A stretch of DNA of 60,226 bases from Clostridia bacterium (GTDB lineage: Bacteria > Bacillota > Clostridia > Christensenellales > Borkfalkiaceae). The notes beneath the pieces were generated by a model that was given only the letters and a program-made list of their open reading frames with translations, had not been told where the DNA came from and made no database searches. Shown here in pieces: positions 14,150-37,532 of the stretch (position 1 is its first letter; the number at the start of each line of letters is the position of its first letter). A program made the translations under genes and the position numbers. The stretch is from positions 1 to 60,226 of the forward strand of contig JAFWAN010000003.1 of NCBI GenBank assembly GCA_017507585.1. The letters are read 5' to 3'.

Positions 14150-14171
14150 TGGATGACTTTTTAAATGTGCT

Positions 14172-17853: not shown

Positions 17854-17884
17854 AAATCCCCGCGTGAAAACGCGGGGAGATTTA
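17854..17884 (-). terminator. Rho-independent terminator ending the minus-strand lipoprotein operon
   Basis: TCCCCGCG-TGAAAA-CGCGGGGA hairpin, followed on the minus strand by TTTATT. Confidence 0.65.
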
Positions 17885-17892
17885 TTATAAGC

Positions 17893-18651
17893 TTAAATTG
17901 AATAGGTAAAGGAGAAGAAATGTTCTCCGTTATCCAATGCGCCTACGGCGATGAGGATTTCATCGCCCGTTTTACAAGCAATCGACGTGGTCGTTCCACC
18001 CAAAGTTGCATCCGATGCAACGTAGCCGTTTTGCATAGAGATATTATTTTGAGGATACTCGCAAGAGATGGTAAACTCGCCGTCCTGGGTTGCAACCCAT
18101 TTATAATACACTGCGTTGTTTTGAGGGAGCTCCACAATCTGTTCGCCGCTGTCGCCTGTCAATTCGAACGGGTTCAATCTGGAACCGAGGGGATATACTG
18201 CTGTCAACGTCGTTTCAATTGCCTCGGTTGCATTATTCTTTACCGAGAAGATGGTAATACTGCCGATTTCAGGGATAATTGCGAAAGAAACGACTCCGTT
18301 TTCAGCGGTATACGTGGTGCCCTTATAAAGGACGGAGACGTTTTCATTTGCAATTTCAAACGTCAGGCTTTCGCTGCCGCGAGAGGCGAAATAGATTTCT
18401 TGACCTGCATCCAATTTTACCTCTGTAACGTCTTCCGCAATCCAGAAAGGGTCGTCCAAAGTACCGGCAGGGGCGTAAACGTATTCTTCGTCCGAGGAAG
18501 AGCTGCTTTCGCTCTCGCTCTCGCTGTCCGAAGCGGTTTCGCTGTTCACGCTCGACGAAAGGGAGGATACTTCATCATCGCCGTTACAAGCAGACAGAGA
18601 AAACGCGAAGGCCATTGCCAATAAAAATGTTAAAAAAGTTTTTATTTTCAT
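17893..18651 (-). CDS. Lipoprotein, 252 aa, with Ser/Glu-rich linker and two beta-sandwich-like modules
   Basis: MKIKTFLTFLLAMAFAFSLSAC has a lipobox. I chose the ATG at 18651 (AAGGAA RBS) over the longer ORF start. The SSLSSSVNSETASDSESESESSSSSDEE linker is followed by modules with EIYFASRGSESLTFEI and YYKWVATQDGEFTISC strands. Confidence 0.75.
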   Translation of the reverse strand: MKIKTFLTFLLAMAFAFSLSACNGDDEVSSLSSSVNSETASDSESESESSSSSDEEYVYAPAGTLDDPFWIAEDVTEVKLDAGQEIYFASRGSESLTFEIANENVSVLYKGTTYTAENGVVSFAIIPEIGSITIFSVKNNATEAIETTLTAVYPLGSRLNPFELTGDSGEQIVELPQNNAVYYKWVATQDGEFTISCEYPQNNISMQNGYVASDATLGGTTTSIACKTGDEILIAVGALDNGEHFFSFTYSI

Positions 18652-18669
18652 AGTGTGTTCCTTATTGTC

Positions 18670-18698
18670 TACCCCATACCTATGCAAGGTATGGGGTA
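18670..18698 (-). other. Intercistronic 11-bp stem-loop between the two lipoprotein genes, no T-tract
   Basis: TACCCCATACC-TATGCAA-GGTATGGGGTA is a perfect inverted repeat. Confidence 0.4.
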
Positions 18699-18714
18699 AG
18701 TATTTAGTTAGTGA

Positions 18715-21700
18715 TTATGCGTTTGCAACGGTCAAAACAACGTCTGCCGTGCCGGTTTCCATACAAACGATGAAGACAAAGGTCGCGCCTGCGTCAAGAG
18801 TTTTGGTGTAGCTTACACCTGCGTCTGCAAGCATATTCCAACCGTCACTGTAGAGTTGCGCTACGTCAGCCGAAATAACGAGCGTTGTTGCTTCCGTTAC
18901 CGTGATGGAAACGACGTAGCCAGGGTAAGCGTTTACCGTACCCATATCGTACTTACCTACGCCCGTCAAGACGTAGGGGTTCGCGGTAGTGCCGTTGCCT
19001 TCCATGGTCGTAACGTCGATGATAACCAATTCTTCAAAGGTTACGTTGATGTTCAAAACAGATGCGGACATATCTGCGGTTGCAACGAAGAGGTAAACCG
19101 TTTGACCTGCTACTACGTCAATGGATACGGTTGTATTTTCAACGTTAAAATCGTAACCGTTGACGGTATCGCTGAAGTTGAAATCGAAATTTGTGGAAGA
19201 GGTCGTTGCTTTCAAGGTACCGTTTGCGGTTGCCGTGTAAGCATAGATGGCACAATCCCATGCGGGTACGCTGTATTCCTTATCGCCAAGCTCCAACACA
19301 AAAGGTGCATTTCTGGTACCATCACGTTCGATTGTACCTGCTTCAAAGGCAACGTTGAAGGAAAGCTCTACCGCTTCCGTTGTTTCCCAAGCTGCAACGC
19401 CGATGTAGTAAGCCATACCGCCTACCACGGACATAATCAAATCGTCGCCCATAACAGGTGCATTTTCATAACCGAATGCCGCGCCGCACATAATGCTTGC
19501 GATGTCGCTACCGTTGGTGATGGTCAAGGTACCGTCTGCTGCAGGGGTATAAACGTACCATACGGCTACGGAATCGCCTGCATAGTTTGCGGTATAATCA
19601 CCCAACGCGGTAATGACGTGGGGATTGCCCTGTGAACCCAAAGGCGCCAACCATTTAATGTTTACAGTGTATTTACCATCCTTGGTTAAAGAAGCAACGT
19701 CAAGTTTTACCGTGTAGGGGGTATAACTGGAAAGGGTAACGTTGTTGGTGCCGATTACGTCGCCGTCAGCATTCATAACGATACAGTCAAAATCTGCCGT
19801 AAATACGTATTCGCCGTCGTTCCAAGGCATAAAGTTGTAGAGGACGTAACCAGTACTGATGTTGTCATCGCTGATATTGAGAGTGTTGTCATCTTCGTAA
19901 AGGTTACCTACGGGGGTAGGTGCTACAACGCCAGCCGATTTAATTTCGAGAGAGTTAGGCTCGTTAGGGCGTACTCCAAATGCGGAAAGCATCGCAAATT
20001 TAATCGTATAAGTGTCCGCGGGAAGCGTGTAGGTATAATCGTCATTTCTTACAATAGTAGCTTCGCTGCTATTGGTAATCGATTGGATGAAAAGGTTGCT
20101 AGCATTAAGCTTGTAAGGATTTTCTTCCGTGATGATCATAGATCTTATTGCCGTATCTGCCTCAATTTCCTCGGGGGAGAAATATAAGGTGTTGGAGCCT
20201 ACCTTCAATACAGTTGCGTAATCGAAATCGCCTTCGTTCTCGTCGTCATCGCCTCCAACGACCTCTTTTGCTTCGAAGGTATAGGAGATGATATGTGTGC
20301 CCTTGGAAGGTGCGCTAAGGTAGAATTCGTACGTGTCGCCTTTTGCAATATCAACCGAGAAACTGCCACCGTTCGGGGTGACGTTGGGATCAACGTAAGG
20401 ATTTTCATTAAATCCGCCGAAATCATGTTCTTCTTTATCAACCGCGCCGTAGCCTGCAGGGATGTTGAAGGTGTACGTACCGGATGCAGGGGCTTCAAAC
20501 GAAACCAACTGACCATCGAAGGTATTGTTGTCGGTGATTTCTACTGAAACAAATTCGCCTACGATGATGGGTGTCTTTACGTTGATGGATACCGACCAAA
20601 TTGTTTCATCAAGGTAGGTAAAGGCAAGAGTATAGCTACCTGGAACAATCTTGGAAACGTCGATGTATTTTTTACCGTCAACGTCGATGAAGATATATGC
20701 ATACGACGAGGAGTCCCCATCGTTGCAGGTCAACGTTGCATTGATCATACCGTTTACTTTGACCAGATCAAACGATTCGGTGGGTACAGCGTCAAACTCG
20801 ATGGAAACGTCTTCCATAGCTTCGTATTCAAGCGTTGCGCCGTTTTCTACCTCAAACGTAAAGCTCTTAGGCATATATACGCTGATGTCTTTTTCGTGTA
20901 CGTACGTTCTTTCGCCAACCGTTTGCGTTACGGCAAAGGTATACGTATCAGGGGAGGCGCCGTCGCGCATCGTGATCGTTTTGTTTGCTTGGTCGTAATC
21001 GTAGTCCACGTCCGCTTCGCCCGCATTGGTGCCTGCATCGTTGGTGTATGCGTCACACTGGATATTTAACGAGGTCAGTTCGAGGTTATCGCTGTAACCG
21101 AAACTTACTGACGTTTCGTAATATCGAACCGAATCGCCTTCGCCTTCTGCCGTATCGGTGTTGATGATTAAGCTGTTAAAAGTAAACGTATAGGTCTTCT
21201 TATCCGCATCGTGTACTACCACGTAATCACTTGCGGAAGATTCTTGGGAAAGGGTATACAGATTGAAGAGTACCGTTTCAGCACCCCAACCGTCTGCCAA
21301 CGTGGATACTGCAAAGTAGTAGCCTGCAAAGTTGTCTTCGTCTGCCGTAACAAATTGAGGGGTCACAACGCCGTCAAGGTGCAATTCTTCAAAGCCTTGA
21401 ATTTCGCCGTTTTCTACGTAGAACCAAGTCTTTGTTAAGGATTCAGCTTGGCCTAACTGCCATACGCCGCCCAAATCGCTCTTGTTGTAAACTTCGCTGT
21501 TGGAAAGGTGCTCTACGTAAGTAGCATTGTTGCCTAAGGTATAATGGATGGTAGCATTCAGATCCGAATATGCATTTTTGCCGTTTCCGTCTGCGATGCT
21601 CTTTGCAACGGAATTAAAGGAATAAACAACTTCACCGCCGTTGATATGGTTGCTTTGTGCAAGCATCGCGTTGATGACCGCTTCAATATTGTTTTTATCG

Positions 21701-22137
21701 ATAGGGGTTACCTGCGTATCGCAGCCGTCGCAGTAGCCTGCATCGTTGACAATGTGTACGTGACCTTCGCAAACGTCGCATACGCCGTCTTCATTGGCGT
21801 CGGTATGTAATTCGTGATTGGATTTTTCATCCGTGTGCGTACAGGTCGCCGCATACCAGTGGTGGGTATCGTCCTTGGACCAAGTTTCCTCAAACGTATG
21901 GGTGTGACCTACTTCGTAGTCGCAAACGTCGCACTTGCCGTCTTCGTTTGCGTCTGCGTGGTTGCCTGCATCCTTCTTTTCTTCGCCGTGTTCACAGGTA
22001 GCGGCGTGCCAATGTTGGTTTGCGTCTACCGTCCAGCTGTCGCCGAAGGTGTGTTCGTGCTGTTTACCAAGGTTACAAGCCGCAAAAGTCGTCGCGCTCA
22101 TCACCAAAGCCAGCAGCATAGGGATTTTCTTTTTCAT
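18715..22137 (-). CDS. Large lipoprotein, 1140 aa: N-terminal His/Cys repeat motifs + unassigned region + multiple beta-sandwich-like modules
   Basis: MKKKIPMLLALVMSATTFAAC has a lipobox. GGAGG RBS at 22146-22150. Two copies of HxHTFx3Wx2Dx3HWxAATCxHx9HxDANEDGxCDVC are present. Repeated strands include VSFEAPASGTYTFNI, VWYVYTPAADGTLTITN and AIYAYTATANGTLKATT. Confidence 0.85.
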   Translation of the reverse strand: MKKKIPMLLALVMSATTFAACNLGKQHEHTFGDSWTVDANQHWHAATCEHGEEKKDAGNHADANEDGKCDVCDYEVGHTHTFEETWSKDDTHHWYAATCTHTDEKSNHELHTDANEDGVCDVCEGHVHIVNDAGYCDGCDTQVTPIDKNNIEAVINAMLAQSNHINGGEVVYSFNSVAKSIADGNGKNAYSDLNATIHYTLGNNATYVEHLSNSEVYNKSDLGGVWQLGQAESLTKTWFYVENGEIQGFEELHLDGVVTPQFVTADEDNFAGYYFAVSTLADGWGAETVLFNLYTLSQESSASDYVVVHDADKKTYTFTFNSLIINTDTAEGEGDSVRYYETSVSFGYSDNLELTSLNIQCDAYTNDAGTNAGEADVDYDYDQANKTITMRDGASPDTYTFAVTQTVGERTYVHEKDISVYMPKSFTFEVENGATLEYEAMEDVSIEFDAVPTESFDLVKVNGMINATLTCNDGDSSSYAYIFIDVDGKKYIDVSKIVPGSYTLAFTYLDETIWSVSINVKTPIIVGEFVSVEITDNNTFDGQLVSFEAPASGTYTFNIPAGYGAVDKEEHDFGGFNENPYVDPNVTPNGGSFSVDIAKGDTYEFYLSAPSKGTHIISYTFEAKEVVGGDDDENEGDFDYATVLKVGSNTLYFSPEEIEADTAIRSMIITEENPYKLNASNLFIQSITNSSEATIVRNDDYTYTLPADTYTIKFAMLSAFGVRPNEPNSLEIKSAGVVAPTPVGNLYEDDNTLNISDDNISTGYVLYNFMPWNDGEYVFTADFDCIVMNADGDVIGTNNVTLSSYTPYTVKLDVASLTKDGKYTVNIKWLAPLGSQGNPHVITALGDYTANYAGDSVAVWYVYTPAADGTLTITNGSDIASIMCGAAFGYENAPVMGDDLIMSVVGGMAYYIGVAAWETTEAVELSFNVAFEAGTIERDGTRNAPFVLELGDKEYSVPAWDCAIYAYTATANGTLKATTSSTNFDFNFSDTVNGYDFNVENTTVSIDVVAGQTVYLFVATADMSASVLNINVTFEELVIIDVTTMEGNGTTANPYVLTGVGKYDMGTVNAYPGYVVSITVTEATTLVISADVAQLYSDGWNMLADAGVSYTKTLDAGATFVFIVCMETGTADVVLTVANA

Positions 22138-22212
22138 AGAAAAGACCTCCTAAAGTTATAATAATTTTTTTATTTTTTTTATTTTTCATACACACAAGCG
22201 TGTGTAATACAT

Positions 22213-22241
22213 ATTGTAGCACAGTTTTCAATTTTTTTCAA
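22213..22241 (-). promoter_or_regulatory. SigA-type promoter (TTGAAA-17 nt-TGcTACAAT, extended -10) for the 1140-aa lipoprotein gene
   Basis: On the minus strand the -35 TTGAAA is at 22236-22241, the spacer is 17 nt, and TACAAT at 22213-22218 is preceded by TGC. Confidence 0.55.
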
Positions 22242-22297
22242 TGATTATCCGTTGGGGGATGATAGAATTTACCGATAGGGATAATCGGTTTTGTGTA

Positions 22298-23827
22298 TTA
22301 AATATAATATCCGCACGCAAACAGCCATTGCGAATCCTCATACGCGTCGATGGCTTTACGGCTGTTGGTTTCCACCCAACCGTCACCGTCCGCAAAATAG
22401 CGTTGCGAAATGGAAAATTTTTGTAAAAATTCGGCAAGCTCTTCCGTAACGGGGCAAACGCCGTCGCTGTTGCAATAAGAATTGTACCCAGGCTTACGCA
22501 TCAATTCGACGGGGCAGGGGGTACAAATCGGCAGACAGTTTTCACAGCCGGGAGGACAAGCTTTATATAGCGTATTGCTCGTCTTATGGCAAGGGCAGTT
22601 ATCCACACAGTAGAACCCAGCGGACGCTACGGCTTGCCAACCCTCAATAAACTGTTTGTAATTTTCCGTACCATTCACGGTCAAAGCTTTGTTACCGCGG
22701 GATTCGATGTCGGTAAACGCTACGTCCAAGAAACGGCAAGGCTTGGTGATATACGCCACCAAAACGGGGCCGTAACCGTTCGTAGTAGGGTACAGCTCGG
22801 GATCGTACAGATGATAGACGCCGTCGCCGCCTGCCGCGATATCCCATACCTTGTAATTGTCCTCGTCGAACATATAGGAATCGGTCGTCCCCGGATACAG
22901 CGTTTCCGCACCTACAATCGTGCGCCCTGCAAGGCTGTTGAAGGTGGGAAAGTCGAATTTGGAAAGATCAGCGGTAGGTACCGCATACGTTTTGTTGTTT
23001 CTGTCTAAATCGAAATCGCCGTTGCGCTTGATGGCAAAGGTAATGGTAACGGGATAGATACCGCTTTTCGGTTCTGCAGAAACGGCAAAGGTAAAGGTTT
23101 GCGAGCCGCCGCCTGACGAACTGATCATTTCCGCCGCAATTTCAATGGTGTGGATAAAATTGCGGGTGTAGCTGCCGCACGCACCGACGTTTTCTACCTT
23201 GTAGGGGGCGTATTTGTAACTGCTGGAGCCGAAATAAGCCGTACAGATCGGGTTGATACCGTCATCGTGGACGTCTACCCAGCTTTCTACGGTATAGGTA
23301 CCGTTGATTTGCGGAGCAAACTCGAAATAGGTCGTATCCCCAGGCTCTGCAATGGTAACCGAATAAATGCCCGTACCGCTTGTATGATAGCAATCGTACA
23401 AGCCGCCGCCTGCGCCCGTTATGGGGTTTAAATCATACATATCAATGGTGACGTTTCTCGCATCGTTGGTCGCTTTGTAGGCGTTGGGGTCGTAGGCATA
23501 GCCATGGGGAACGCTGGAAAGCGTTACCTGATAATCGCCGTCCAAGCCGTCGATACGCGCCACGCCGTTTTCGTCTACGGGTGCAACGTGGATATTGTAC
23601 CCGTCGCGCCAATATACGTTGACGTTGACCATAGGCCGATAGGGCTGACCGTTTAATCGTAAGGTCGCCGTGAAATCGTTGGTGGGGTCGTCGTCCATTT
23701 CCGGTTGTACAACGCCGCCTTCACTGTTTCCGCTGTTGAGGGCAGGGTTGTATTCACCGCAAGAAAAGAGGAAACAGCAAAGGAATATAGATAAAAGCAG
23801 TAAAGCCGCTTTTCTCATAAATTTCAT
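22298..23827 (-). CDS. Lipoprotein, 509 aa, with Ig/carboxypeptidase-regulatory-like N-terminal module and Cys-rich C-terminal module
   Basis: MKFMRKAALLLLSIFLCCFLFSCG has a lipobox. AGGAGG RBS 9 nt upstream. The ATG overlaps the stop of the upstream vWA gene (ATGA). There are 12 Cys in a 52-aa stretch (FYCVDNCPCH...SDGVCPV). Confidence 0.8.
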   Translation of the reverse strand: MKFMRKAALLLLSIFLCCFLFSCGEYNPALNSGNSEGGVVQPEMDDDPTNDFTATLRLNGQPYRPMVNVNVYWRDGYNIHVAPVDENGVARIDGLDGDYQVTLSSVPHGYAYDPNAYKATNDARNVTIDMYDLNPITGAGGGLYDCYHTSGTGIYSVTIAEPGDTTYFEFAPQINGTYTVESWVDVHDDGINPICTAYFGSSSYKYAPYKVENVGACGSYTRNFIHTIEIAAEMISSSGGGSQTFTFAVSAEPKSGIYPVTITFAIKRNGDFDLDRNNKTYAVPTADLSKFDFPTFNSLAGRTIVGAETLYPGTTDSYMFDEDNYKVWDIAAGGDGVYHLYDPELYPTTNGYGPVLVAYITKPCRFLDVAFTDIESRGNKALTVNGTENYKQFIEGWQAVASAGFYCVDNCPCHKTSNTLYKACPPGCENCLPICTPCPVELMRKPGYNSYCNSDGVCPVTEELAEFLQKFSISQRYFADGDGWVETNSRKAIDAYEDSQWLFACGYYI

Positions 23828-26478
23828 ACTTTTTTACCTCCTTTCTTTTTTTGGAACCATCTCTTTATATCCGCCCATCTGGTTTTACGGATGAAGATAT
23901 CTACCAAGACCAGAACCACCGCCGTAATTAGCAAAGGCATACGGAAATTAAGTTCGTAGGTCGAAACGTCGTTTCTGTCGTTGGTCAGATCCAGCTTGCC
24001 GTCGGTGGAAATTTCACCGCTGCCGCGCATAAAATCGTGCAGGTTGGACACGTCGTATACGGCAAACGCATCGTATTCGGGCTGATATGCTACGTTGTAA
24101 TATACCTCGGAAACGAAGCGGTGCGTGCCGTAGGCATAGGTAATTTGGATATGATATCTTCCCGTTTTCGGCGTTTCAAAAGTGGTTAAATACCGATTGA
24201 GATCGAACGCCAGCGTTTCCTTGTATTCGGCACCGCTTGGATCGGTGACGACGACCGTTGCCTTGGCAAGCGGGTTCAGGTACGAGGGTACAATTTCTAA
24301 CGTTGAGTAATTGCCCTCGTAGGTGAAGTTCAAATTATAAGGATAATGAATGCGTTCGGGCGGGGTGTTGCTGGTCAATACGTTGCCGAAAAAATTCGTT
24401 TTCGTGTCCGTATTCCAGCCCTTTAACCAATCGCCTGAAAGGCTGGAGGTAAAGGAGGCGACTCTGCCGTTGCCGTGATCCCGATAGGAATAGAGGGGAA
24501 CCTGCGTGACGGTATCCGCATTCTTCTGATAATCGACCGACAATACCATATTGGCGTCGGGTTTTGCCTTGCTGTTGACGTACCCAAAGACGTTGGGCAA
24601 AGACAAAATTCCGTTGACGGTATCATCGCGGAAGGTGTTGATTGTGACCTTGCTTTCCTTTTCCACGATCGATTCCGTCAGCTCGTTTGCGATCGTTGCG
24701 AAAATCAAATCGGCTACGGCTTCCGCACGTTCGATAAGGTAGTAATTTCCGCCGCCGTTCGACGCGATCGCCGACAGCAATTTTACCGCTTGCGGTTCGT
24801 TGCCTGAAAGAATATTGACCGCGGAAACCGTAATGCCGTCCGCTTTCATATCCGAGGCGATTTTTGCCGCGTCTTCGGGTTCGTAGGTAAAGGTCAAGCC
24901 GTCGCTGATCAGCATAACCTGCTTTTCTGCGTAATCCAAATCCTTGATATGGTCGTACGCCATTTTTAAGGCTTCGCCGATAAAGGTACCCTGCGAAGGA
25001 GTAGCCGTTTGAATTTTCTCATACAGCTCTTCACGGCATTCGCCCAAAGGGGTAGGGATCTGTTCGATCCTTGCTTCTCCTGCAAGGGTAACGTAGGCAA
25101 CACAGTCTTCATCGTTGAGCAAAGAAAGCAATTTCAATGCCGCGTCTTTTGCGATGATGAGCTGTGACGTATCGTTCATACTGCGGGAAATATCAAGGAC
25201 GATGGTGTACAGCTTTGCGTCCTTGTTGGCGTTGCCGAAATTGACGGGCAACAATTCTTCCAAGCGTTCAAAAATTGGATCGTCCTTGTTTTGCATTTGC
25301 AAATCGCCAAGGGTGATTAGGCTCTTGCCGTATTCGGAAACCACTGCGTCTACCGAATCGACAAACGCGTAAATATTGTTGATTTTACGTACGTCTACGT
25401 TGGACAAAATGATTTCATCGTACGCGGAAAGGGCTTCTACCGTGTAAGGCACGTCGCGGTTAAAATTGTTGATGACGTAGGGGTCAAGCTCTGCCGTTTC
25501 TCTGTAAAGAGCTGTCAATTCGTTGACGTCGCTTTGTTTTTCCGTAACCAACAACACGTTGCGTTTGCCTGCAACCGTCTGCGTGAAGGTGTAGGCGTTG
25601 TTTTGCTCCGAGCCATCAGACGTCGCAGAAACGACTGCTTTGTAATCGAATACGCCTTCCGTATCTGTGAGAAGGTCAAACGTCGCTACGTTGATGCCTG
25701 CGTCCAAATGCAATACGGTGGTATTGATTTTTACGTATTCGCCGTCTGCATTTTTCATAAACAAATCCAACATTGCATCGTTGTCCGTGTTGGACTCGAT
25801 TTGGATTTGTACCTGCGTATCGTAGTTTAGATAGGTCGAGTGGGTATATTCCGCGCCGCTGATTTGTACCTCGTGGACGCCGTCTTCAAGATTGCTGTCA
25901 AGATAAACCGCGTCTAAACGGATATTTCTCGCCTTTAAGCGTTCGACTGCGGATACCAAATCTGCGTTGGCCGAAGCGGTATCCATACCGTCGGTCAATA
26001 AGATAATGCGTTTTAATTCGTTTTCACTAAAGAGCGTAGCGGTATAATCCAACGCGCCGACAATGTTGGTGCCGCTGGTATCTACCGTTGCTTCCTTGAC
26101 GCTCTTGATTTCCGTTCCCGACGAAGTCAATATCTTGCTGTCGTTGCCAAAGCATACGATCCCCAAACGGGAGTTGGGTGGCAATTCTTCTGCGATATTG
26201 GCGATATGCGCGTCAATTTCGTCAAGATTGCGGTTGGTAGAGTAGGAAAGGTCTGCCACGATATATACTTTCGTGCGCGTCATGACCGTGGTGTGAACAA
26301 GGCCTGCCGCCGCCAAGGTAACGCATACGGCAATCAAACAATGTATCACGAGGGAAGCAATCCAGCCCTTGTTGCGGTTATCCCTGCTGACGGAAACAAA
26401 ATACGGGATAAACAGAGCCAACAAAAGGGGGATGGCAAGCAGTAACCAATATGGATTATCGAAGCTGATATTTCTCAT
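23824..26478 (-). CDS. Membrane protein with two von Willebrand factor A domains (Bat-like), C-terminal TM helix
   Basis: The N-terminus MRNISFDNPYWLLLAIPLLL is hydrophobic (BatA_N-like). MIDAS-type DxSxS motifs occur in VADLSYS and VLDISRS. The C-terminal LLITAVVLVLVDIFI helix is followed by a basic tail. I chose the start at 26478; the ORF-track start at 26517 would give a longer overlap. Confidence 0.85.
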   Translation of the reverse strand: MRNISFDNPYWLLLAIPLLLALFIPYFVSVSRDNRNKGWIASLVIHCLIAVCVTLAAAGLVHTTVMTRTKVYIVADLSYSTNRNLDEIDAHIANIAEELPPNSRLGIVCFGNDSKILTSSGTEIKSVKEATVDTSGTNIVGALDYTATLFSENELKRIILLTDGMDTASANADLVSAVERLKARNIRLDAVYLDSNLEDGVHEVQISGAEYTHSTYLNYDTQVQIQIESNTDNDAMLDLFMKNADGEYVKINTTVLHLDAGINVATFDLLTDTEGVFDYKAVVSATSDGSEQNNAYTFTQTVAGKRNVLLVTEKQSDVNELTALYRETAELDPYVINNFNRDVPYTVEALSAYDEIILSNVDVRKINNIYAFVDSVDAVVSEYGKSLITLGDLQMQNKDDPIFERLEELLPVNFGNANKDAKLYTIVLDISRSMNDTSQLIIAKDAALKLLSLLNDEDCVAYVTLAGEARIEQIPTPLGECREELYEKIQTATPSQGTFIGEALKMAYDHIKDLDYAEKQVMLISDGLTFTYEPEDAAKIASDMKADGITVSAVNILSGNEPQAVKLLSAIASNGGGNYYLIERAEAVADLIFATIANELTESIVEKESKVTINTFRDDTVNGILSLPNVFGYVNSKAKPDANMVLSVDYQKNADTVTQVPLYSYRDHGNGRVASFTSSLSGDWLKGWNTDTKTNFFGNVLTSNTPPERIHYPYNLNFTYEGNYSTLEIVPSYLNPLAKATVVVTDPSGAEYKETLAFDLNRYLTTFETPKTGRYHIQITYAYGTHRFVSEVYYNVAYQPEYDAFAVYDVSNLHDFMRGSGEISTDGKLDLTNDRNDVSTYELNFRMPLLITAVVLVLVDIFIRKTRWADIKRWFQKKKGGKKV

Positions 26479-28303
26479 AGCAGTATACCATCCAATCCGC
26501 AATAAATAAAAGAGCAAGGCAAATAAACAGGATCAGTAAGGGATCATATTCCCCATCCGTCCGTTCGTATTGCTGCGTTCCGTGCAAGCTAAACGATTCG
26601 CCCTTTAAGGTCGGGTTGCTTTCGTTGTCGGGAGAGGAGGAATAAATGAGATAATTTTTCTCTTCGCCCGATACGCTAAACCGAATCGTGTACGTGCCGA
26701 CGCGCTCTAAATGCAACACGCCGATGTCGGCGGTGTTGTCAACGTAGATTTCCTCTCCGTCAGGGGAAATCGCCTTTACGTTTTTCATATTAGCCGTAAT
26801 ATTGATATTGACATCCTCGCCGCAAACGTAATCGGTGCGGTCGAGTACGTCGGGGCAGGAATAAGCAAGCAAGTTGCATACCAAGGGCTCAAAGTCGGTG
26901 GACATGGGCAGGTCGCTCTTATGCAGATCGAAACCAAACACGACTTCGCGATTGCCTAAGGCATTTACCCCTGCAAAAATCAGGGGATGTGCGTTGTAAG
27001 AAAACAGCGTGGTGAATTTGGTGTACATACCGCTGTATTTTATATATTCGGACAGGTAAATATCCTTCCCATTGATCCCTTGCAACAGTGTGCGCGTCGT
27101 GGTGGAGGTGGAGTCGGACTTCACCAATTCCACGGGATCGTCCGTTTCAATGATACCGCGGATACTAAAACCGGAATTGGCAACGCTCTTGGTTGAATTG
27201 ATCAGCCAAACAGCGCCGTCGGGCAAGGTATCAGGGGTAAACGAATGGAAAATATACAATCCGTAGCCTGCGTTGTTTTGATATGCGTCAGGTTCAATGA
27301 CGTCGATTTTTGAATCAGTATATACGTCCAAAGCCACTTGCAAGAAGAAGGGCGTTTCGCTGACGATCAAGATGCTGTACGCCGCTTCGCTTTGCTGGTT
27401 GTAACTGATGATTTCGTTGTCAAAGGACAGCGAGTCTTCATTTTCAATCACCAAACGGAAACTGTCGTATGCGTCCGTGTTTGCCGTTAAGGTAACGGGG
27501 GTAGCTTCGCCTTTTTTTACCGCAATATCTGCGGTTTTTGCAGGGGTAGTCTTACCGTTTACGTACAAGGAAACCGTCAAGGTTTCGTCCGTGGTATAGG
27601 AAATGACGTTGGCTTGCGCGGTTAAAAGATTTCCCGTCAAAGAGCCGTCGACGTCGCCGATTGCGTAATTGACGTCCGTGTCCGAGCCGAAACGGACAAT
27701 CTCCACGTTGTCGTGGGCATCGTACGTTTTGTCCGTGAATAAGGACACCGCAAAAGAGGGATTTTCGTTGAAATATTTTTGCGCCGCCGCAAGCGAATCG
27801 GTGTATTGCACCGAACCGTTGCTGCAGGTCAAATCGGCAAGCAATTCTTTTGCCAAAGCCTTGTCCGATAAACGTTCGTACGCGGTGGTCGTTTCAGTGG
27901 AAACGTGGATCAGCGTATACGTGCTGCCCAGGCGCGCGTCGGAAATTCTTTCTTCAATGGCTGCCTTTGCTAAGTCAAATCGGGTTTCTCGGTCCGATTG
28001 CATTTGCATACTGCCCGACGCGTCGAGGATGAAACAATATTCGAGCGCAGTGTTTGGCAATACGAAAATCGGGCGCGCAATCGCCAACGAAAGGACGGCG
28101 ATCGTGAGGATTTGCAAAATCAAACTGATGATGCCCGTCAAACCGCTTAAAGGGTTTCTGCGCTTGAAAAACCGTTCGCTCAACTCCCAAAGATAGGTGG
28201 AAGGTACGGTTTGTTCGTTGAATTTATTTCTAAGGATATAGATAATGATGACGATGGGGATGCCGATCAAGCCCAACAGCCCGAGGGGGAACAGAAATCT
28301 CAT
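26456..28303 (-). CDS. BatA-like protein (aerotolerance-regulator N-terminal double-TM domain + vWA domain)
   Basis: N-terminus MRFLFPLGLLGLIGIPIVIIIYILRNK. MIDAS motif ILDASGSM. C-terminal TM helix. ATGA overlap with the upstream DUF58 gene. Confidence 0.85.
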   Translation of the reverse strand: MRFLFPLGLLGLIGIPIVIIIYILRNKFNEQTVPSTYLWELSERFFKRRNPLSGLTGIISLILQILTIAVLSLAIARPIFVLPNTALEYCFILDASGSMQMQSDRETRFDLAKAAIEERISDARLGSTYTLIHVSTETTTAYERLSDKALAKELLADLTCSNGSVQYTDSLAAAQKYFNENPSFAVSLFTDKTYDAHDNVEIVRFGSDTDVNYAIGDVDGSLTGNLLTAQANVISYTTDETLTVSLYVNGKTTPAKTADIAVKKGEATPVTLTANTDAYDSFRLVIENEDSLSFDNEIISYNQQSEAAYSILIVSETPFFLQVALDVYTDSKIDVIEPDAYQNNAGYGLYIFHSFTPDTLPDGAVWLINSTKSVANSGFSIRGIIETDDPVELVKSDSTSTTTRTLLQGINGKDIYLSEYIKYSGMYTKFTTLFSYNAHPLIFAGVNALGNREVVFGFDLHKSDLPMSTDFEPLVCNLLAYSCPDVLDRTDYVCGEDVNINITANMKNVKAISPDGEEIYVDNTADIGVLHLERVGTYTIRFSVSGEEKNYLIYSSSPDNESNPTLKGESFSLHGTQQYERTDGEYDPLLILFICLALLFIADWMVYCYEKYQLR

Positions 28304-29187
28304 TTCAGCACCTCCAAATCGACCATGTTGCCAAATATGACGTCCGCAATCGGGGTGTGCGCGGGGGTGAATAAATAATGCGCGCCGCGCGCTTCACAGT
28401 AATTTTTAATTCTGTCTACCACGAACTTAAAGGCGTCTTTATAGGCGCGTACCACGTCCTGATCGATCTTCTTACGGAAGAATCGGCTGGGGGTTTCTGA
28501 ATCGAACAAATGCATTTTACCGCGCATTTGGGGGTTGATTTCTTCACGGGAGAGGACTTGTATACAGAGCACGTCACGCTTTTGCTCGCATAAGCGGTCG
28601 ATGGCGCGTTCAAAATTCTCGTCGGTGAGAAAATCGGAGATAATGATGGACAAGCCGTCGCCTCTTCCCACGGGAGAAGGGACGATCGCCTCACTGATTT
28701 TGGCGTCGCCATCAAATTCGATTTCATTCAGTTTATTGACGCAGTTGAGGTAAGAATCTTTGCCGACGATTCCGCTGACCACCTCTTCCAATTGTCCGCC
28801 GCGCATCACGTAAATGGATACCTTGTCCATTTCGCATACGGAAAGATAGGCAAAAGCCGCCGCGATCTTAATCGCTTGCTCTGCCTTTTCCGAATCTGCG
28901 CCGTGCGCCATAGAACGGCTTGCGTCGATATAGATTTTGGTATGCATTTGCCGTTCGTCAAAATACAGCTTTTGATACAGCTTATCAAAACGCGCGTAGG
29001 CATTCCAATCTATTTTCGTTATGTCGTCGCCGGGGATGTAATCGCGGTAATCCGCAAACTCGCAGGAAGATCCGAAATTCTTCGTTTGTCGGTTTCCGCC
29101 AAACATACCGGCTACGTTATTTTTGAGGACCGTTTGCAAAGCTTCCAGCTCGCTTAAAAACGCCTCTTCGATAACAAGTTTTTTCAT
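28300..29187 (-). CDS. DUF58 domain protein (vWA-related partner of MoxR)
   Basis: FADYRDYIPGDDITKIDWNAYARFDKLY is the typical DUF58 signature (REYxPGDxxRxIDWKAxAR pattern). Confidence 0.85.
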   Translation of the reverse strand: MKKLVIEEAFLSELEALQTVLKNNVAGMFGGNRQTKNFGSSCEFADYRDYIPGDDITKIDWNAYARFDKLYQKLYFDERQMHTKIYIDASRSMAHGADSEKAEQAIKIAAAFAYLSVCEMDKVSIYVMRGGQLEEVVSGIVGKDSYLNCVNKLNEIEFDGDAKISEAIVPSPVGRGDGLSIIISDFLTDENFERAIDRLCEQKRDVLCIQVLSREEINPQMRGKMHLFDSETPSRFFRKKIDQDVVRAYKDAFKFVVDRIKNYCEARGAHYLFTPAHTPIADVIFGNMVDLEVLK

Positions 29188-29197
29188 AGGGAAGCCC

Positions 29198-30181
29198 TTA
29201 TTTCGTTTCTTTGATAATTTTTGCGATTACGTCGTCTACGCTCAATTTTTCATTGACTGCGGCGTAATTGATTTTAATTCTGTGACGGAGAATAGGGAAG
29301 GCAAGCGCTTCGATATCCTCGTAAGCTACGTTGTAACGTCCGTCCATCAACGCGCGGATTTTTGCCGCGGTGATCAAGCCTTGTGCCGCACGGGGAGAAG
29401 CGCCGTATTTGACGTATTTCTTCGTGGATGCAGGGCAGTTTTCCAATGCAGGGTGCGTGTTGGAAACCAAATTAACGGCGAACATCATAACCTCGTCGCA
29501 TACGGGTACCTTGGAGGCAAGCGTGCGCATTTCAAGGATTTCCGTACCGTTGATGACGGCCTCTGCCGTTTCTGCCATGGTGATCTGCGTCATTTTGACA
29601 ATATCCATCAATTCTTGATTGGTAGGATAATCGACAATCAGCTTGAAGAGGAAACGGTCCATTTGCGCCTCGGGAAGAGGATAGGTACCGTCCTGTTCGA
29701 TGGGGTTCTGCGTTGCCAAAACGAAGAAGGGTTCTTTAATTTTATAGGTCGATTTACCGATCGTTACCTTATGTTCCTGCATGACCTCCAACATTGCCGA
29801 TTGCGTTTTTGGGGTTGCACGGTTGATTTCGTCTGCCAATACGAGGTTGGAGAAAATGGGGCCGGGACGGAATTTCGTTTCCAATTTTCCGTTTTCGTCC
29901 TTTTCAATAACGTTGGTACCCGTTACGTCCGAAGGCATAAGGTCAGGGGTGAACTGAATGCGCGAGAAGGGCAACGACATCGTTTTGCCCAAGGCGCGTA
30001 CAAGACGTGTTTTACCAACGCCGGGTACACCTTCCAACAAGACGTTACCGCCTGCAATGATGGCGATGATGACGTTGTGGATAATATCCTTTTGACCAAC
30101 GACGTCCTTTGCCAATTCCATTTGTACTTTTGAGATTTTTTCACTGAAAATACTTACTTTTTCCATCGTAATTTCTTCCAT
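29198..30181 (-). CDS. moxR: MoxR-family AAA+ ATPase
   Basis: Walker A in LLEGVPGVGKT, Walker B in LLADEINRA, and the ATQNPIEQDGTYPLPEAQMDRF motif characteristic of the MoxR/AAA_3 family. Confidence 0.9.
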   Translation of the reverse strand: MEEITMEKVSIFSEKISKVQMELAKDVVGQKDIIHNVIIAIIAGGNVLLEGVPGVGKTRLVRALGKTMSLPFSRIQFTPDLMPSDVTGTNVIEKDENGKLETKFRPGPIFSNLVLADEINRATPKTQSAMLEVMQEHKVTIGKSTYKIKEPFFVLATQNPIEQDGTYPLPEAQMDRFLFKLIVDYPTNQELMDIVKMTQITMAETAEAVINGTEILEMRTLASKVPVCDEVMMFAVNLVSNTHPALENCPASTKKYVKYGASPRAAQGLITAAKIRALMDGRYNVAYEDIEALAFPILRHRIKINYAAVNEKLSVDDVIAKIIKETK

Positions 30182-30183
30182 TT

Positions 30184-31662
30184 TTATTTACCATCCTCTT
30201 TTTCAATACCGCTGTAAAGCAGGGAAAAATATTTTTTAATCAATTCTTTTTGTTCGTCCGAGTAATTGCCGTTATTTAACCGATCGTTCATCACGGCGTA
30301 ATATTTATTGATCAGGGTTCCATATTCGACGTAATTCCCCGTCAAGGGATCTAAAACCAAATCCTTACTGCCAAAGGTCGCGCCCTCGCCGATGCCGCCG
30401 TCGGACGGCCCTTTGTCGTTGGGTCTGTCTTCGCCTGCGCCCTGATTGTTCTGCTCTGTCAAATCGGGGCGTTCAAAGGGGGGCAGAGGTACAGGGAACA
30501 GCGTTGCCAACTTCGTCATAGTGTATTCGCCTACGTTGGTGTTGATTTTTAATTGTGAAATCACACCGTAGGTGGTTTGTGAGGCGTCGTCTAAAGCTTT
30601 GTCGATGCTTGCCAAGGCCGCTTCATAGGAAGCTGCGTTTTTGGCAATTTCCTGCTGTTGCGTTACAAACTGCGCCACCGTAATATACAAGCTGTCCGTT
30701 TGCGCAATTCTTGACTGTTGCAAGGCTACGTTGATTTTTAACACTGAAAAATCCAATTTTTGGGTCAATATTTCGACAAGCTCCGTTGCGTCGGGGGTAG
30801 GCTCGCCCTCAGCGGGTTGGTATCGAAATAGCTGTTTATATTCGGTCAATTTTTCTGCAAAATCCCCCCAATTCGGTTCTTTCCAGGTGGAGGTGTTTAA
30901 CAGCGTTGCAAAGCCTTTTGCATACGTATCCTCGCTTGCCCAAAGTGCCGTTAATATTTCCGCCGAGGAAGAGGAATCATAGGTGCAGGTGGAGATGTTT
31001 GCCATCGCCTCTGTTAAGGCTACCTGCATTTCCGGTTCGGTGGTTGCCAATTTTAAATCAGCCAACAAACCGCTAAGCGAATCGGATATTTGCGTGCGGT
31101 AGGTTTCTTCCATTGTCGAGCCGTCGACGTAGCGGATCAATTCTTCAATGCCTGCAATCTGCATTTGCGTGATCGCAAAGGGTTTGGGCGGCGGAGTTTG
31201 GTTGCGCTTATTCGGGACAAGCAACCCGCCGACAACCGCCGTTACGCCGATACAAAAAGCGGTCAAATAAATCCACAAACGCTTGATTTTGAATTTCTTG
31301 GTTGAGATTTTAGATAAGGCGTCTTCCGCGCTTTGACGCTGTAAATCCAGCAGCTCGCCTTGCTCCGTTTCGTAGGCGATCATGGTTTGCACTTTTTCCT
31401 GTAAAACAAAGCGTTCGTCTAAGCTTTCCGCCAACTGCTTGTCCGACGTGCGGAGGAAAAGGAAAAATAGGATTGCCGTTACCAAGCCCACGCCGAAGCC
31501 GATCGCCAAGGCAATGATGGGCGGGAAGGGAAGCAGCGCAAGTCTGGACAGCAATAAAGCGATGCCGCCTGTTAAACCTCCGCTTGCAAGCCCCGTCAAT
31601 ACGCTTTTTAGGATACGGGCTTTTTTTACTTTTTGTTTGAATTTTAAAAAGAGTTTACTCAT
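30184..31662 (-). CDS. Membrane protein of unknown family (first gene of the MoxR operon), 492 aa
   Basis: There are two N-terminal hydrophobic helices (LTGLASGGLTGGIALLLSRL and IIALAIGFGVGLVTAILFFLFL) and a third (WIYLTAFCIGVTAVVGGLLV), followed by a large helical soluble region. The stop lies 2 nt before the moxR ATG. Confidence 0.7.
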   Translation of the reverse strand: MSKLFLKFKQKVKKARILKSVLTGLASGGLTGGIALLLSRLALLPFPPIIALAIGFGVGLVTAILFFLFLRTSDKQLAESLDERFVLQEKVQTMIAYETEQGELLDLQRQSAEDALSKISTKKFKIKRLWIYLTAFCIGVTAVVGGLLVPNKRNQTPPPKPFAITQMQIAGIEELIRYVDGSTMEETYRTQISDSLSGLLADLKLATTEPEMQVALTEAMANISTCTYDSSSSAEILTALWASEDTYAKGFATLLNTSTWKEPNWGDFAEKLTEYKQLFRYQPAEGEPTPDATELVEILTQKLDFSVLKINVALQQSRIAQTDSLYITVAQFVTQQQEIAKNAASYEAALASIDKALDDASQTTYGVISQLKINTNVGEYTMTKLATLFPVPLPPFERPDLTEQNNQGAGEDRPNDKGPSDGGIGEGATFGSKDLVLDPLTGNYVEYGTLINKYYAVMNDRLNNGNYSDEQKELIKKYFSLLYSGIEKEDGK

Positions 31663-31733
31663 TTTATTCCTTTTGATTTGATTTCGCCGTTTTCATTGCC
31701 GGCGATTTCGTTTGTGATAGAATAATAAAACAT

Positions 31734-31762
31734 ATTATATCATACATTAGAAAATTGTGCAA
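31734..31762 (-). promoter_or_regulatory. SigA-type promoter (TTGCAC-17 nt-TATAAT) for the MoxR/vWA operon
   Basis: On the minus strand the -35 is at 31757-31762 and the -10 at 31734-31739, with exactly 17 nt between them, about 70 nt upstream of the first ATG. Confidence 0.55.
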
Positions 31763-31906: not shown

Positions 31907-31935
31907 TTGAAAAAAGGGGATTTATATGGTATACT
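31907..31935 (+). promoter_or_regulatory. SigA-type promoter (TTGAAA-17 nt-TGgTATACT) for the acyltransferase gene
   Basis: -35 at 31907-31912 and -10 at 31930-31935. The TTG that the ORF track uses as a start codon is the -35 element. Confidence 0.6.
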
Positions 31936-31966
31936 AATCCTACAAATCTACGTTATGAGGAAATTT

Positions 31967-33208
31967 ATGAAAAAACAACCGAAAAGATTTGATATGTACC
32001 GTCAAGCAAATAAGCCGAAATGGTATTTAAAAATTGTCGAATTTGTCGGCGCGCCCTTTTATATGTGGTTTAACAAAGGGCACGTAAAGACGGAAAAATC
32101 GGTTAAAAAAATGAAAGGTCCCTATTTGATTTTGGCGTCGCACGCATCGTTTATGGACTTTGCCCAGATTGTTTGCGGATTGATGCCACGCACGACGGGT
32201 TGGGTAATGTCGGTAGAAGAAATGCGCCGCGGTAATTGGTTGATGTACGGCATCGGCGGTATGCCGAAACGTAAATTTACACACGATATCGTGACGGCAA
32301 AACACGTTATGCGTTATATCAAAACGTTGAAACATACCTGCACGATTTTTCCCGAGGCAAGATTTTCCTTGGCTGGCGTCAACGAACGTTTGGACGATGC
32401 GCTGGGGAAGCTGTGCAAACATTTGAAGGTCCCCGTGGTACTGTTCAAAGCAAACGGCAACTTTTTAAATTCGCCCCAATGGAAAAAACGCCCGTATAAA
32501 CGTATTCGTCAGGAGGCGGAGATATCCCTGCTGCTTACCGTGGAGGATTTGCAATCGATGACGGCGGACGAAGTGCAGGCGAAGATTGAAAAGGCGTTTG
32601 AACGTGACGAATACCGTTGGCAGGTTGAAAAGGGCTACCATATCAAATGTAAAACCCGCGCGGAGGGCTTGCACCGTATTTTGTACAAATGTCCCGCGTG
32701 CGGTCAAGAATTCAAGATGAAAACCGAGGGGATCAAGCTTTGGTGCGACGACTGCGGCGCAACCTGGGAAATGGATACCCTCAGCCGCTTGAACGGCGTC
32801 AATACGGAGGCTGGTTTCTCTCATGTCCCCGATTGGTACAACTGGGAGCGTGTAGAGGTTCGTAAAGAGGTACAGGCAGGTACGTACCATTTTGAAGACG
32901 ACGTACGTGTAGAAGATTATTACTCGACCGAAATTGGCTTTATTAACGTTGGCGACGCGCACGTGGTACACGATAAAAACGGGTTTACCTTTATGGGGAC
33001 GGTGGACGGTAAGCCGTTTACGCTCAACAAGCCCGTTTCGTCTATGTATTCGGTGCATATCGAGTACGATTTCTTGGGCCGTGGCGACGCGTTTGATATC
33101 GCGACGGAAACAACCAGTTATTTTATGTTCTTAAAGACTGCGGAAAATTATCTAACCAAAATGCATTTTGCGCAGGAAGAGCTTTACGATTATTACGTAA
33201 GAAAATAA
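31967..33208 (+). CDS. PlsC-type (lysophospholipid) acyltransferase with C-terminal extension containing a CxxC...CxxC zinc-ribbon
   Basis: HX4D motif in LILASHASFMDF, and FPEARFS (FPEG-like block). CPACGQEF...WCDDCG zinc ribbon. ATG at 31967 has GAGG 6 nt upstream. Confidence 0.7.
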   Translation: MKKQPKRFDMYRQANKPKWYLKIVEFVGAPFYMWFNKGHVKTEKSVKKMKGPYLILASHASFMDFAQIVCGLMPRTTGWVMSVEEMRRGNWLMYGIGGMPKRKFTHDIVTAKHVMRYIKTLKHTCTIFPEARFSLAGVNERLDDALGKLCKHLKVPVVLFKANGNFLNSPQWKKRPYKRIRQEAEISLLLTVEDLQSMTADEVQAKIEKAFERDEYRWQVEKGYHIKCKTRAEGLHRILYKCPACGQEFKMKTEGIKLWCDDCGATWEMDTLSRLNGVNTEAGFSHVPDWYNWERVEVRKEVQAGTYHFEDDVRVEDYYSTEIGFINVGDAHVVHDKNGFTFMGTVDGKPFTLNKPVSSMYSVHIEYDFLGRGDAFDIATETTSYFMFLKTAENYLTKMHFAQEELYDYYVRK

Positions 33209-37257: not shown

Positions 37258-37532
37258 AAAAACTGCGCGATCCTTTTTTGCCGAATTTTACCGAAGCGGA
37301 AACGCCGCAGGTGACTACTGTAAAGCTACCTTATGGCACACGCAAACTTCCGCTTAGTGCTGCTACATTCCTGTCCTGACACGGTTCACGGCATTACGTT
37401 GCATAAGACCTTACGATCAACGTTCCTTACGACGCGCAAACCTTCCATAAAATCCGTCGAGAAAGGCATTCGGCTCTGCTATAGCGGATTGCAGATACAG
37501 GGTGCCGCTAACTCCCCACCTACGCGCAGCCT
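37258..37532 (-). ncRNA. ffs: Signal recognition particle RNA, long (Bacillus/scRNA) type with Alu-like domain
   Basis: The minus strand reads ...GUCAGGACAGGAAUGUAGCAGCACUAAGCGGAAGUUUGCGUGUGCCAUAAGGUAGCU..., matching the conserved domain IV of 4.5S/SRP RNA (GUCAGG, GGAA tetraloop closed by ACA/UGU, AGCAGC, GCGUGUGCC...GUAGCU). The 5' GGCUGCGCG pairs with the 3' CGCGCAGUU. The 5' domain GGGGAGUUAGCGGCACCCUGUA resembles Alu-domain sequences of Firmicutes. End coordinates are +/-5 nt. Confidence 0.8.

Follow-up and report, generated by a model that had tools for sequence, protein, structure and literature searches.

A Bat-like MoxR-DUF58-vWA gene cassette coupled to a lipoprotein of an unnamed family in uncultured gut Clostridia

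Introduction

MoxR-DUF58-vWA gene cassettes, also called Bat-like, are widespread, and to our knowledge their clients and biochemical role are largely unknown. The cassette considered here lies on the minus strand of a stretch of 60,226 nucleotides (nt) from a Clostridia bacterium (GenBank assembly GCA_017507585.1, contig JAFWAN010000003.1), which is referred to below as the window. Its genes for a MoxR-type ATPase, a DUF58 protein and two membrane proteins with vWA domains are preceded by the gene of a 492-residue membrane protein (g492) and followed, with a start/stop overlap, by that of a 509-residue lipoprotein (lipo509); the genes of two further lipoproteins, lipo1140 and lipo252, come next. 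The first six genes recur as a module in related genomes, and the reading favoured here, which has about an even chance of being right, is that they would encode a lineage-specific surface complex built on a Bat-like MoxR-DUF58-vWA core, with lipo509 as its partner.

The Bat operons of Bacteroides fragilis (BatI), Borrelia (bb0170-bb0176) and Leptospira (batABD) likewise consist of tightly packed genes for MoxR, DUF58 and proteins combining a BatA hairpin with a vWA domain (PMC5700661). Several differences set the window apart from them. None of its eight proteins matches a TPR (BatC/BatE), SH3 or BatD-type family at E <= 0.01 in Pfam or NCBIfam, and without these components the cluster is not a full Bat operon. 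Its vWA proteins are two to three times larger (615 and 884 residues), one of them with two vWA domains, and its host is predicted to be a monoderm of the Clostridium class. Finally, the cluster starts with a protein with three transmembrane (TM) segments and ends with the translationally coupled lipoprotein, neither of which is assigned to a family.

The MRP (MoxR proper) subfamily defined by Snider and Houry in 2006 includes, in the summary given in PMC12067865, the mycobacterial moxR1-DUF58-vWA operon. Common to that operon and the window is the succession of an AAA_3-type MoxR, a DUF58 protein and a vWA membrane protein, and the AAA_3 domain together with the adjacent DUF58 and vWA genes identifies the ATPase of the window as an MRP-type MoxR. 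The mycobacterial operon encodes one vWA membrane protein, against two in the window. RipA, which has been proposed as its client, is encoded upstream and is a peptidoglycan hydrolase exported by Tat, whereas no enzyme is linked to the cassette of the window. The RavA-ViaA system of Escherichia coli also pairs an AAA+ ATPase of the MoxR family with a vWA cofactor carrying a metal-ion-dependent adhesion site (MIDAS), but it belongs to another MoxR subfamily, lacks DUF58, and comprises a cytoplasmic ViaA with neither ectodomains nor lipoproteins.

A further likeness is found in the PFNA cluster of bifidobacteria, which encodes the kinase Pkb2, an FN3 protein, a MoxR-type AAA ATPase, DUF58 and a transglutaminase (PMC8430577, PMC12067865). 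There too, a MoxR-DUF58 cluster of monoderm gut bacteria is genetically fixed to a surface beta-sandwich protein. The partners differ: Pfam gives no Pkinase, fn3 or transglutaminase match in the eight proteins of the window, where MoxR and DUF58 are accompanied in the membrane by vWA proteins and at the surface by a lipoprotein whose family is unnamed and unrelated. A first-pass annotation, made from the letters of this DNA alone, knew of no described case of such a cassette hard-wired to lipoproteins of this kind. This stands for the lipo509 family and for the architecture of the cassette, of which no description was found in the literature and family libraries searched; the general idea of a MoxR-DUF58 pair tied to a surface protein is not new, in view of the PFNA precedent.

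Organization and domain content of the gene block

The minus-strand run comprises eight genes, from position 31662 down to 17893. The remaining long open reading frames (ORFs) of the window are nearly all on the plus strand, the lone long minus-strand ORF cited outside the block being one of 434 residues at 44222-45526, and GC skew drops across 18-32 kb from about 0.15-0.25 to about 0.03. In order of transcription, the block contains g492 (30184-31662), the MoxR-type AAA+ ATPase (29198-30181, 327 residues), the DUF58 protein (28300-29187, 295 residues), a BatA_N and vWA protein (26456-28303, 615 residues), a membrane protein with two vWA domains, called 2xvWA (23824-26478, 884 residues), lipo509 (22298-23827), lipo1140 (18715-22137, 1140 residues) and lipo252 (17893-18651, 252 residues). 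Two starts deserve comment. The 2xvWA ORF extends over 23824-26517 and would encode 897 residues from a TTG codon; gene calls of 883-893 residues in relatives match the 884-residue product of the ATG at 26478. The lipo252 ORF extends over 17893-18687 and would encode 264 residues from TTG, against 252 from the ATG at 18651.

Spacing within the module is very short: 2 nt separate g492 from MoxR and 10 nt separate MoxR from DUF58, the DUF58 gene and the 615-residue gene share an ATGA (4 nt), and the 615-residue and 884-residue genes overlap by 23 nt, given the ATG at 26478. The 2xvWA and lipo509 genes again share an ATGA, and an AGGAGG lies 8 nt upstream of the lipo509 ATG. The block had been drawn in the same way in the first-pass annotation, with regard to coordinates, gaps, overlaps and domains, and both the ORF list and Pfam agree with it; the ribosome-binding motif and start/stop overlap it gave to lipo509 are both present.

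The ATPase matches AAA_3 (PF07726, E 8e-62) and AAA_lid_2 (PF17863, E 3.5e-16) in Pfam, and its Walker A (GVPGVGKT) and Walker B (ADEI) motifs are intact and invariant in 42 homologs. A secondary Pfam match, to bpMoxR, recalls the MoxR-vWA conflict or defence systems that Kaur et al. 2020 reportedly describe. That the cassette is such a system is almost certainly not the case, since this match is far weaker than that to AAA_3 (E 1.4e-16 vs 8e-62), Pfam detects no beta-propeller, effector or other conflict-type domain, PADLOC yields weak generic AAA matches and no defence assignment, and the vWA proteins here appear to be membrane-anchored, with ectodomains.

The DUF58 protein (DUF58, E 2e-28) has a DxSxS motif at residue 88 and no TM segment. 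In the 615-residue protein, BatA_N (PF07584, E 5.5e-11) is followed by VWA_2 (E 5.8e-9) with a MIDAS DxSxS at residue 94, and on this domain evidence the protein is classed as BatA-like; its score against TIGR02226 in NCBIfam is under the cut-off of the model. The 884-residue protein carries VWA_3 and VWA_2, with DxSxS at residues 89 and 442 (897-residue numbering), along with a sub-threshold GATase1_like match. The DxSxS motifs of the DUF58 protein, the 615-residue protein and both vWA domains of the 884-residue protein are invariant in 50-52 homologs, except for a conservative Ser-to-Thr change at one position of the 615-residue protein in 3 of 51 sequences. The other MIDAS positions of the vWA domains (T, D) are invariant in an alignment of 10 sequences that reaches down to 40% identity. 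No Pfam, NCBIfam or PDB sequence match is found for g492; a hint of 'LPG_synthase_TM', seen in Pfam at E <= 10 with isolated segments, was set aside as due to TM composition.

Conservation of the six-gene module

Loci for comparison came from three sources: species genomes that were scanned, metagenomes searched with the 2xvWA protein as seed, and direct look-ups. The order g492-MoxR-DUF58-BatA_N+vWA-2xvWA-lipo509 is found in every one of the 36 loci in which 8.2 kb or more of sequence precede lipo509. The median distance from the 2xvWA stop to the lipo509 start is -4 nt; the genes overlap in 36 of 51 loci and are separated by no more than 30 nt in 47 of them, and this closeness persists where lipo509 identity is as low as 27-37% (L057, L050 and L062). 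Seen from the other side, lipo509 is the next gene after 2xvWA in 13 of the 14 loci with room downstream. None of the genes flanking the window's block is present in loci L001-L039, even at 76-89% cassette identity, and such unshared flanks around a conserved cassette indicate that the six genes are kept as a unit. Median identity amounts to 58% for lipo509, 58-60% for the two vWA membrane proteins and 78% for MoxR. As far as gene order and divergence can tell, these data support a functional link between the cassette and the lipoproteins.

Mere co-location provides another account. The cassette would then be a general envelope stress or aerotolerance system of the Bat type, and the lipoproteins would be independent surface proteins, for example adhesins or glycan binders, kept near it by co-regulation or locus history. 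Taken for the whole block this is rather unlikely, although it deserves to be taken seriously. It leaves lipo509 unexplained, whose start/stop overlap of 4 nt with the 2xvWA gene is retained down to 27% identity, which is tied to the cassette in 36/36 loci and which evolves at the rate of the vWA proteins. The points in its favour come mostly from the genes downstream of lipo509 and are weighed with them below.

The origin of the module is illuminated by an outgroup cassette in a pika gut assembly (L060, 3782-15827), whose 2xvWA protein is 26% identical to that of the window. It encodes, in this order, a 732-residue membrane protein, MoxR, DUF58, a 560-residue BatA-like protein and a 1002-residue 2xvWA protein. 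Residues 2-153 of g492 are homologous to the first gene product of L060 (hhalign probability 97.8%, E 9e-13), and this TM-loop-TM module is the only part that the two proteins have in common. From the composition of L060, the ancestral core consisted of five genes; lipo509, and the g492 ectodomain in its present form, were added within the lineage.

The coupled lipoprotein lipo509

The lipobox of lipo509 reads LFSC, and its C23 is kept without exception among 38 close and 20 distant homologs. No Pfam or NCBIfam family covers the protein, and a PDB sequence profile search returned nothing significant. Its homologs fall into more than 386 clusters at 90% identity, every one of them unnamed or 'hypothetical', and originate only from metagenome-assembled genomes of uncultured Clostridia, Eubacteriales and Oscillospiraceae or from gut metagenomes. 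An exhaustive profile search retrieved 605 representatives of 50% clusters, 321 of them at E <= 1e-30, and most of the representatives listed align over most of their length.

The AlphaFold model of lipo509 (pLDDT 81) shows a flexible linker, an Ig-like sandwich (residues ~52-133), a jelly-roll (~147-268) and a C-terminal alpha/beta domain (~290-509) with an optional Cys-rich insert at 407-438. A fold comparison, the course suggested in the first-pass annotation for the unassigned proteins, gave limited returns: Foldseek against PDB matches the lipo509 and lipo1140 models only at the level of beta-sandwich domains (TMq <= 0.15), and finds no whole-chain analogue. The folds nearest to the jelly-roll of lipo509 are the claudin-binding domain of C. 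perfringens enterotoxin (C-CPE), the pilin CNA-B domain (BcpA) and DUF3823, and the C-terminal alpha/beta domain has no analogue in PDB. A comparison of lipo509 with viral models (BFVD) gave merely generic beta-sandwich and tail-fibre matches. Both lipo509 and lipo1140 have binding-type folds in their models, and searches of the three lipoproteins brought up neither an enzyme fold nor a catalytic family.

Deep conservation in the family concerns the Ig-like domain and a C-terminal motif, DG..PVT.E...FLQ ... F.DG.G..E ... E..QWL..C..Y. E463, D480 and E497 of lipo509 are among the acidic positions that do not vary. According to hhalign, lipo509 and lipo1140 are not homologous; a hint of shared jelly-roll modules from an uncorrected BLAST comparison was judged too weak and was not used.

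Segments weakly like the C-terminal domain of lipo509 occur in two large proteins from other loci, of 1388 residues (L038, 3468-7634) and 1089 residues (L039, 8759-12028). With 26% identity (E 8e-7) in one match and 41% over 60 residues (E 5e-6) in the other, the similarity is weak. The gene just before each of them encodes a protein of 873-930 residues that contains an AhpC/TSA-thioredoxin-like domain; a MoxR cassette was not detected in either locus. From these neighbours, a link of the lipo509 C-terminal domain to extracytoplasmic thiol chemistry is possible.

The downstream lipoproteins and their transcription

The lipobox of lipo1140 is FAAC, with C21 invariant in 42 sequences, and the protein matches no Pfam or NCBIfam family. 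Four parts can be distinguished along the chain: residues 29-140 hold two and a half His/Cys mini-domains, a beta-sheet of long curved strands follows at 150-410 and a pair of Ig-like domains at 420-620, and variable beta-sandwich modules occupy 620-1140. The model of residues 1-620 (pLDDT 84) displays the His/Cys units as small beta-hairpins, followed by long curved strands with a helix and two filamin-like Ig domains; the curved-strand domain has only weak LprG/LolA-like matches in Foldseek against PDB. Of the features that had been read from the letters, the His/Cys repeats are present and the 12 Cys of the lipo509 module are borne out by a count in the sequence.

The family of lipo1140 residues 1-620 comprises more than 352 clusters, most of which are stand-alone lipoproteins of 600-700 residues. 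In all four contexts examined (4/4), which were picked for long contigs, a full-length homolog of this N-terminal part lies one or two genes after the lipo509 homolog; in one of these contexts it closes the operon, 17 nt beyond lipo509. In the forward survey, the N-terminal family is present in about three-quarters of the loci with enough downstream DNA, by the author's count. Relatives also encode separate proteins of about 1300 residues with modules of the 620-1140 type, as well as lipo252 relatives, in variable order and with fusions, and lipo1140 of the window is itself a fusion of two units that are separate in most relatives. The lipobox of lipo252 is LSAC; two beta-sandwich-type modules follow, and its homologs (30-43% identity) are encoded further down the lipoprotein array in many relatives.

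Proteins with CotH, CBM26 and SpaA domains are also seen in the arrays of relatives (L001, 19046-20986; L003, 16722-19058), which points to a changeable 'surface protein island' adjoining the conserved module.

Two promoter-like sites had been read from the sequence on the minus strand, one at 31734-31762 and one internal. Consensus matches are indeed present at both places: TGCACA-16-TATAAT at 31734-31761, upstream of g492, and TTGAAA-17-TACAAT at 22213-22241. Both are intergenic with a TG-extended -10 element, and the TTGAAA/TGnTACAAT site is conserved between the window and its closest relative (L004). The region holds 24 promoter-like sites, against 21.7 in shuffled sequence, which is no excess over chance, so both promoters are plausible rather than demonstrated. 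Next to the cassette promoter site lies a divergent ORF of 433 residues (31907-33208, plus strand) with no Pfam family and no counterpart in loci L001-L039.

As had been noted, no convincing terminator follows lipo509 in the window, where the sole hairpin between this gene and the internal promoter site is a weak one without a T-run (22271-22289, minus strand, -6.8 kcal/mol). The strong terminator-like hairpins of relatives sit at this very place: immediately 3' of the lipo509 gene, L005, L001 and L012 each have a hairpin with a free energy of -20 to -23 kcal/mol, and in two of the three (L005 and L012) a clear T-rich stretch comes after it. These hairpins and the promoter site of their own indicate that lipo1140 and lipo252, which the first-pass annotation had placed in the same orientation behind the internal promoter, form a predicted transcription unit apart from the cassette, yet syntenic with it. 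In the genome of the window, read-through from lipo509 into the downstream genes is plausible. Further down, a 12-bp perfect hairpin without a T-run (18670-18698, minus strand), between the lipo1140 and lipo252 genes and just upstream of the lipo252 ribosome-binding site, could be an element of mRNA processing or stability. The block is closed by an intrinsic terminator (17857-17878, minus strand) with a 9-bp GC-rich stem of -19 kcal/mol and a T-rich tail. No RNA element turned up in the gene block when it was scanned with Rfam and for tRNAs.

It is here that co-location draws its arguments: the internal promoter site, the strong hairpins after lipo509 in relatives, a downstream array whose members are shuffled, fused or split and interspersed with CotH, CBM26 and SpaA proteins, and a window rich in other large surface proteins and glycosidases. 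The outgroup cassette L060, which has no lipoproteins, points the same way. In the opposite direction, the lipo1140 N-terminal family stands beside cassettes in each of the four samples. For the downstream genes considered separately, co-location without a complex is likewise rather unlikely.

Predicted topology and the Cys/His-rich modules

Predictions assign two of the eight products to the cytoplasm and six to the membrane or the extracytoplasmic space. MoxR and DUF58, with no signal peptide and no convincing TM segment, are predicted to be cytoplasmic. In g492, a cytoplasmic N-terminus would be followed by TM segments at about 20-40, 47-70 and 131-149, a cytoplasmic loop at 72-127 and a helical ectodomain of about 340 residues (150-492); its best conserved parts are the cytoplasmic loop and the final ~100 residues of the ectodomain. 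The 615-residue protein is predicted to have an N-terminal TM hairpin with a basic cytoplasmic loop, an ectodomain of about 510 residues (roughly 80-588), a C-terminal TM segment and a basic tail. The 884-residue protein follows the same plan, with a TM hairpin and basic loop, a large ectodomain (roughly residues 65-840), a C-terminal TM segment and a basic tail (10 K/R) that is among its best conserved parts. The topologies of these two vWA proteins agree with that of the BatA-like protein BB0173 of Borrelia, which has been shown experimentally to have three TM helices and a periplasmic vWA domain (PMC5700661). By signal peptide and lipobox cysteine, lipo509, lipo1140 and lipo252 are predicted lipoproteins, and the three MIDAS-intact vWA domains and all lipoproteins are predicted to be extracytoplasmic.

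The lipoproteins owe their unusual appearance to two modules. Residues 27-126 of lipo1140 (21760-22060) contain a repeat of about 50 residues, H-x-H-T-F..W..HW.A.C.H ... H.D.N.DG.CD.C, all of whose His, Cys and Trp are invariant in 42 sequences and whose family is absent from Pfam. Its D-x-N-x-D-G loop gives a sub-threshold Dockerin_1/TSP3-like match (Pfam, E <= 10, isolated segment), and from its residues the repeat may bind Ca as well as Zn. In lipo509, 12 Cys are counted between residues 364 and 505; the stretch C-x3-C-x-C-H ... C-x3-C-x2-C-x3-C is modelled with low confidence, and the close clade keeps seven Cys and one His with little or no variation.

The first-pass annotation had supposed that the AAA+/vWA machinery matures, metal-loads or assembles these lipoproteins into a cell-surface complex. 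Direct maturation would mean that MoxR and the vWA proteins act like a chelatase on the Cys/His-rich lipoproteins before or during surface assembly. The relationship of MoxR/vWA with the AAA+/vWA pairs of Mg- and Co-chelatases, which surfaces here in weak, sub-threshold BchD, CobT and ChlI matches, would fit this, as would the invariance of the His/Cys positions of lipo1140 and of those of lipo509 in its close clade. The decisive objection is topological: MoxR and DUF58 have no export signals and the mature lipoproteins are exported, and from opposite sides of the membrane, ATP-driven maturation or metal insertion by the ATPase is unlikely. The modules themselves are no better witnesses. Five lineages that keep the coupled gene (L034, L036, L048, L051 and L057) lack the Cys-rich module of lipo509. 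The His/Cys repeat is also found at the N-terminus of a 932-residue protein (P0296; L064, 10001-12799) in an unrelated context with no cassette, so that it looks like a generic structural module, and its weak match is to a dockerin/TSP3-like Ca-binding loop. The chelatase matches are far under their cut-offs as well. Direct maturation is therefore quite improbable, and the Cys/His features that prompted the idea of metal do not belong to the core; assembly into a surface complex is the part of the earlier supposition that is kept, as the favoured reading.

A chelatase-like role was rejected on scores (TIGR02031, 34.6 bits vs a cut-off of 499; TIGR02442, 20-30 bits vs 779) together with topology.

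The same cysteines could be seen as thiol switches, by which extracytoplasmic Cys-rich modules would report oxidation to the Bat-like machinery. Lowered aerotolerance in Bacteroides fragilis is the original Bat phenotype, as cited in PMC5700661, the hosts of the module are gut anaerobes, and the segments resembling the lipo509 C-terminal domain in L038 and L039 lie near AhpC/TSA-thioredoxin-like proteins. Those matches are, however, weak and come from loci where no cassette was detected, several lineages do without the Cys module, and work in Leptospira did not reproduce a role of Bat proteins in aerotolerance (PMC3557215). A sensor of oxygen or of redox state thus has little probability.

A candidate surface complex

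In the favoured surface complex, lipo509 would join the vWA ectodomains outside the cytoplasm, as a stoichiometric subunit or as their ligand, in a contact that is probably metal-ion-dependent, through the MIDAS. Translational coupling suggests matched stoichiometry, and equal evolutionary rates and compatible localisation are consistent with such a pairing. Being cytoplasmic, MoxR and DUF58 could influence the complex only through the membrane proteins, whose conserved loop and tails are candidate contacts: they would reach it indirectly, by way of the cytoplasmic segments of g492 (its loop) and of the vWA proteins (loop and tail), and may help to assemble or remodel it. The downstream lipoproteins would constitute a reshuffled array of binding-type surface proteins, probably docked on this scaffold or organised by it.

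Several points weigh against this reading. We know of no established biochemical function for the known Bat/MoxR cassettes, and deletion of all bat genes in Leptospira biflexa produced no phenotype (PMC3557215). The topologies derive from hydropathy and the positive-inside rule. In L060, an HMA-domain P-type metal ATPase is encoded about 390 nt after the 2xvWA gene and no lipoprotein is found; a cassette that does without lipo509 implies that the lipoprotein is an add-on which the core does not need. The synteny of lipoproteins with MoxR-DUF58-vWA genes, on which the earlier supposition depended, is borne out by the six-gene loci and by the four lipo1140 contexts, but within one lineage of uncultured gut Clostridia and not in unrelated genomes, and shared ancestry in a single clade accounts for part of it. 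Lastly, the downstream lipoproteins have their own promoter site and, in relatives, a strong hairpin before them, and their link to the cassette could be co-location only.

A bolder form of the surface complex, and a distinctly doubtful one, is an integrin-like 'inside-out' switch, in which cytoplasmic MoxR/DUF58 would control the binding of lipo509 at extracellular MIDAS sites. ATP would be spent by MoxR/DUF58 on the g492 loop and on the tails of both vWA proteins, the three extracellular vWA MIDAS sites would toggle between binding and releasing lipo509, and through lipo509 a changeable set of surface lipoproteins would be engaged. If true, such a switch would give a monoderm gut anaerobe ATP-controlled surface display or adhesion, and Bat-type MoxR/vWA systems would have in lipo509 a first defined extracytoplasmic ligand of endogenous origin.

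The interest of the locus lies in the concrete candidate partners it offers, since a genetically fixed extracytoplasmic protein of about 500 residues and a second, syntenic lipoprotein family accompany the cassette, whose predicted topology is clear. The pairs that can be tested are those of lipo509 and the vWA ectodomains, and of MoxR/DUF58 and the g492 loop. In addition, two or three sizeable protein families without a name are defined, from uncultured Clostridia that are abundant in the guts of ruminants and other animals. This value is limited in that the hosts are uncultured, the evidence is comparative and precedents exist (PFNA; BatD and TPR proteins).

Genomic surroundings

No tRNA genes were found in the window. 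Upstream in the coordinates, on the plus strand, two genes (23-5353 and 5604-8843) encode proteins of 1776 and 1079 residues with CBM_4_9, PKD-like and Listeria-Bacteroides repeat domains, and GH20 and rhamnosidase-like genes are found at 12542-15800, in a region rich in surface and glycan-handling proteins. Bacillota typically have the large form of the signal recognition particle (SRP) RNA. The window's only Rfam match is to this bacterial large SRP RNA (RF01854, 181.8 bits), at 37263-37529 on the minus strand.

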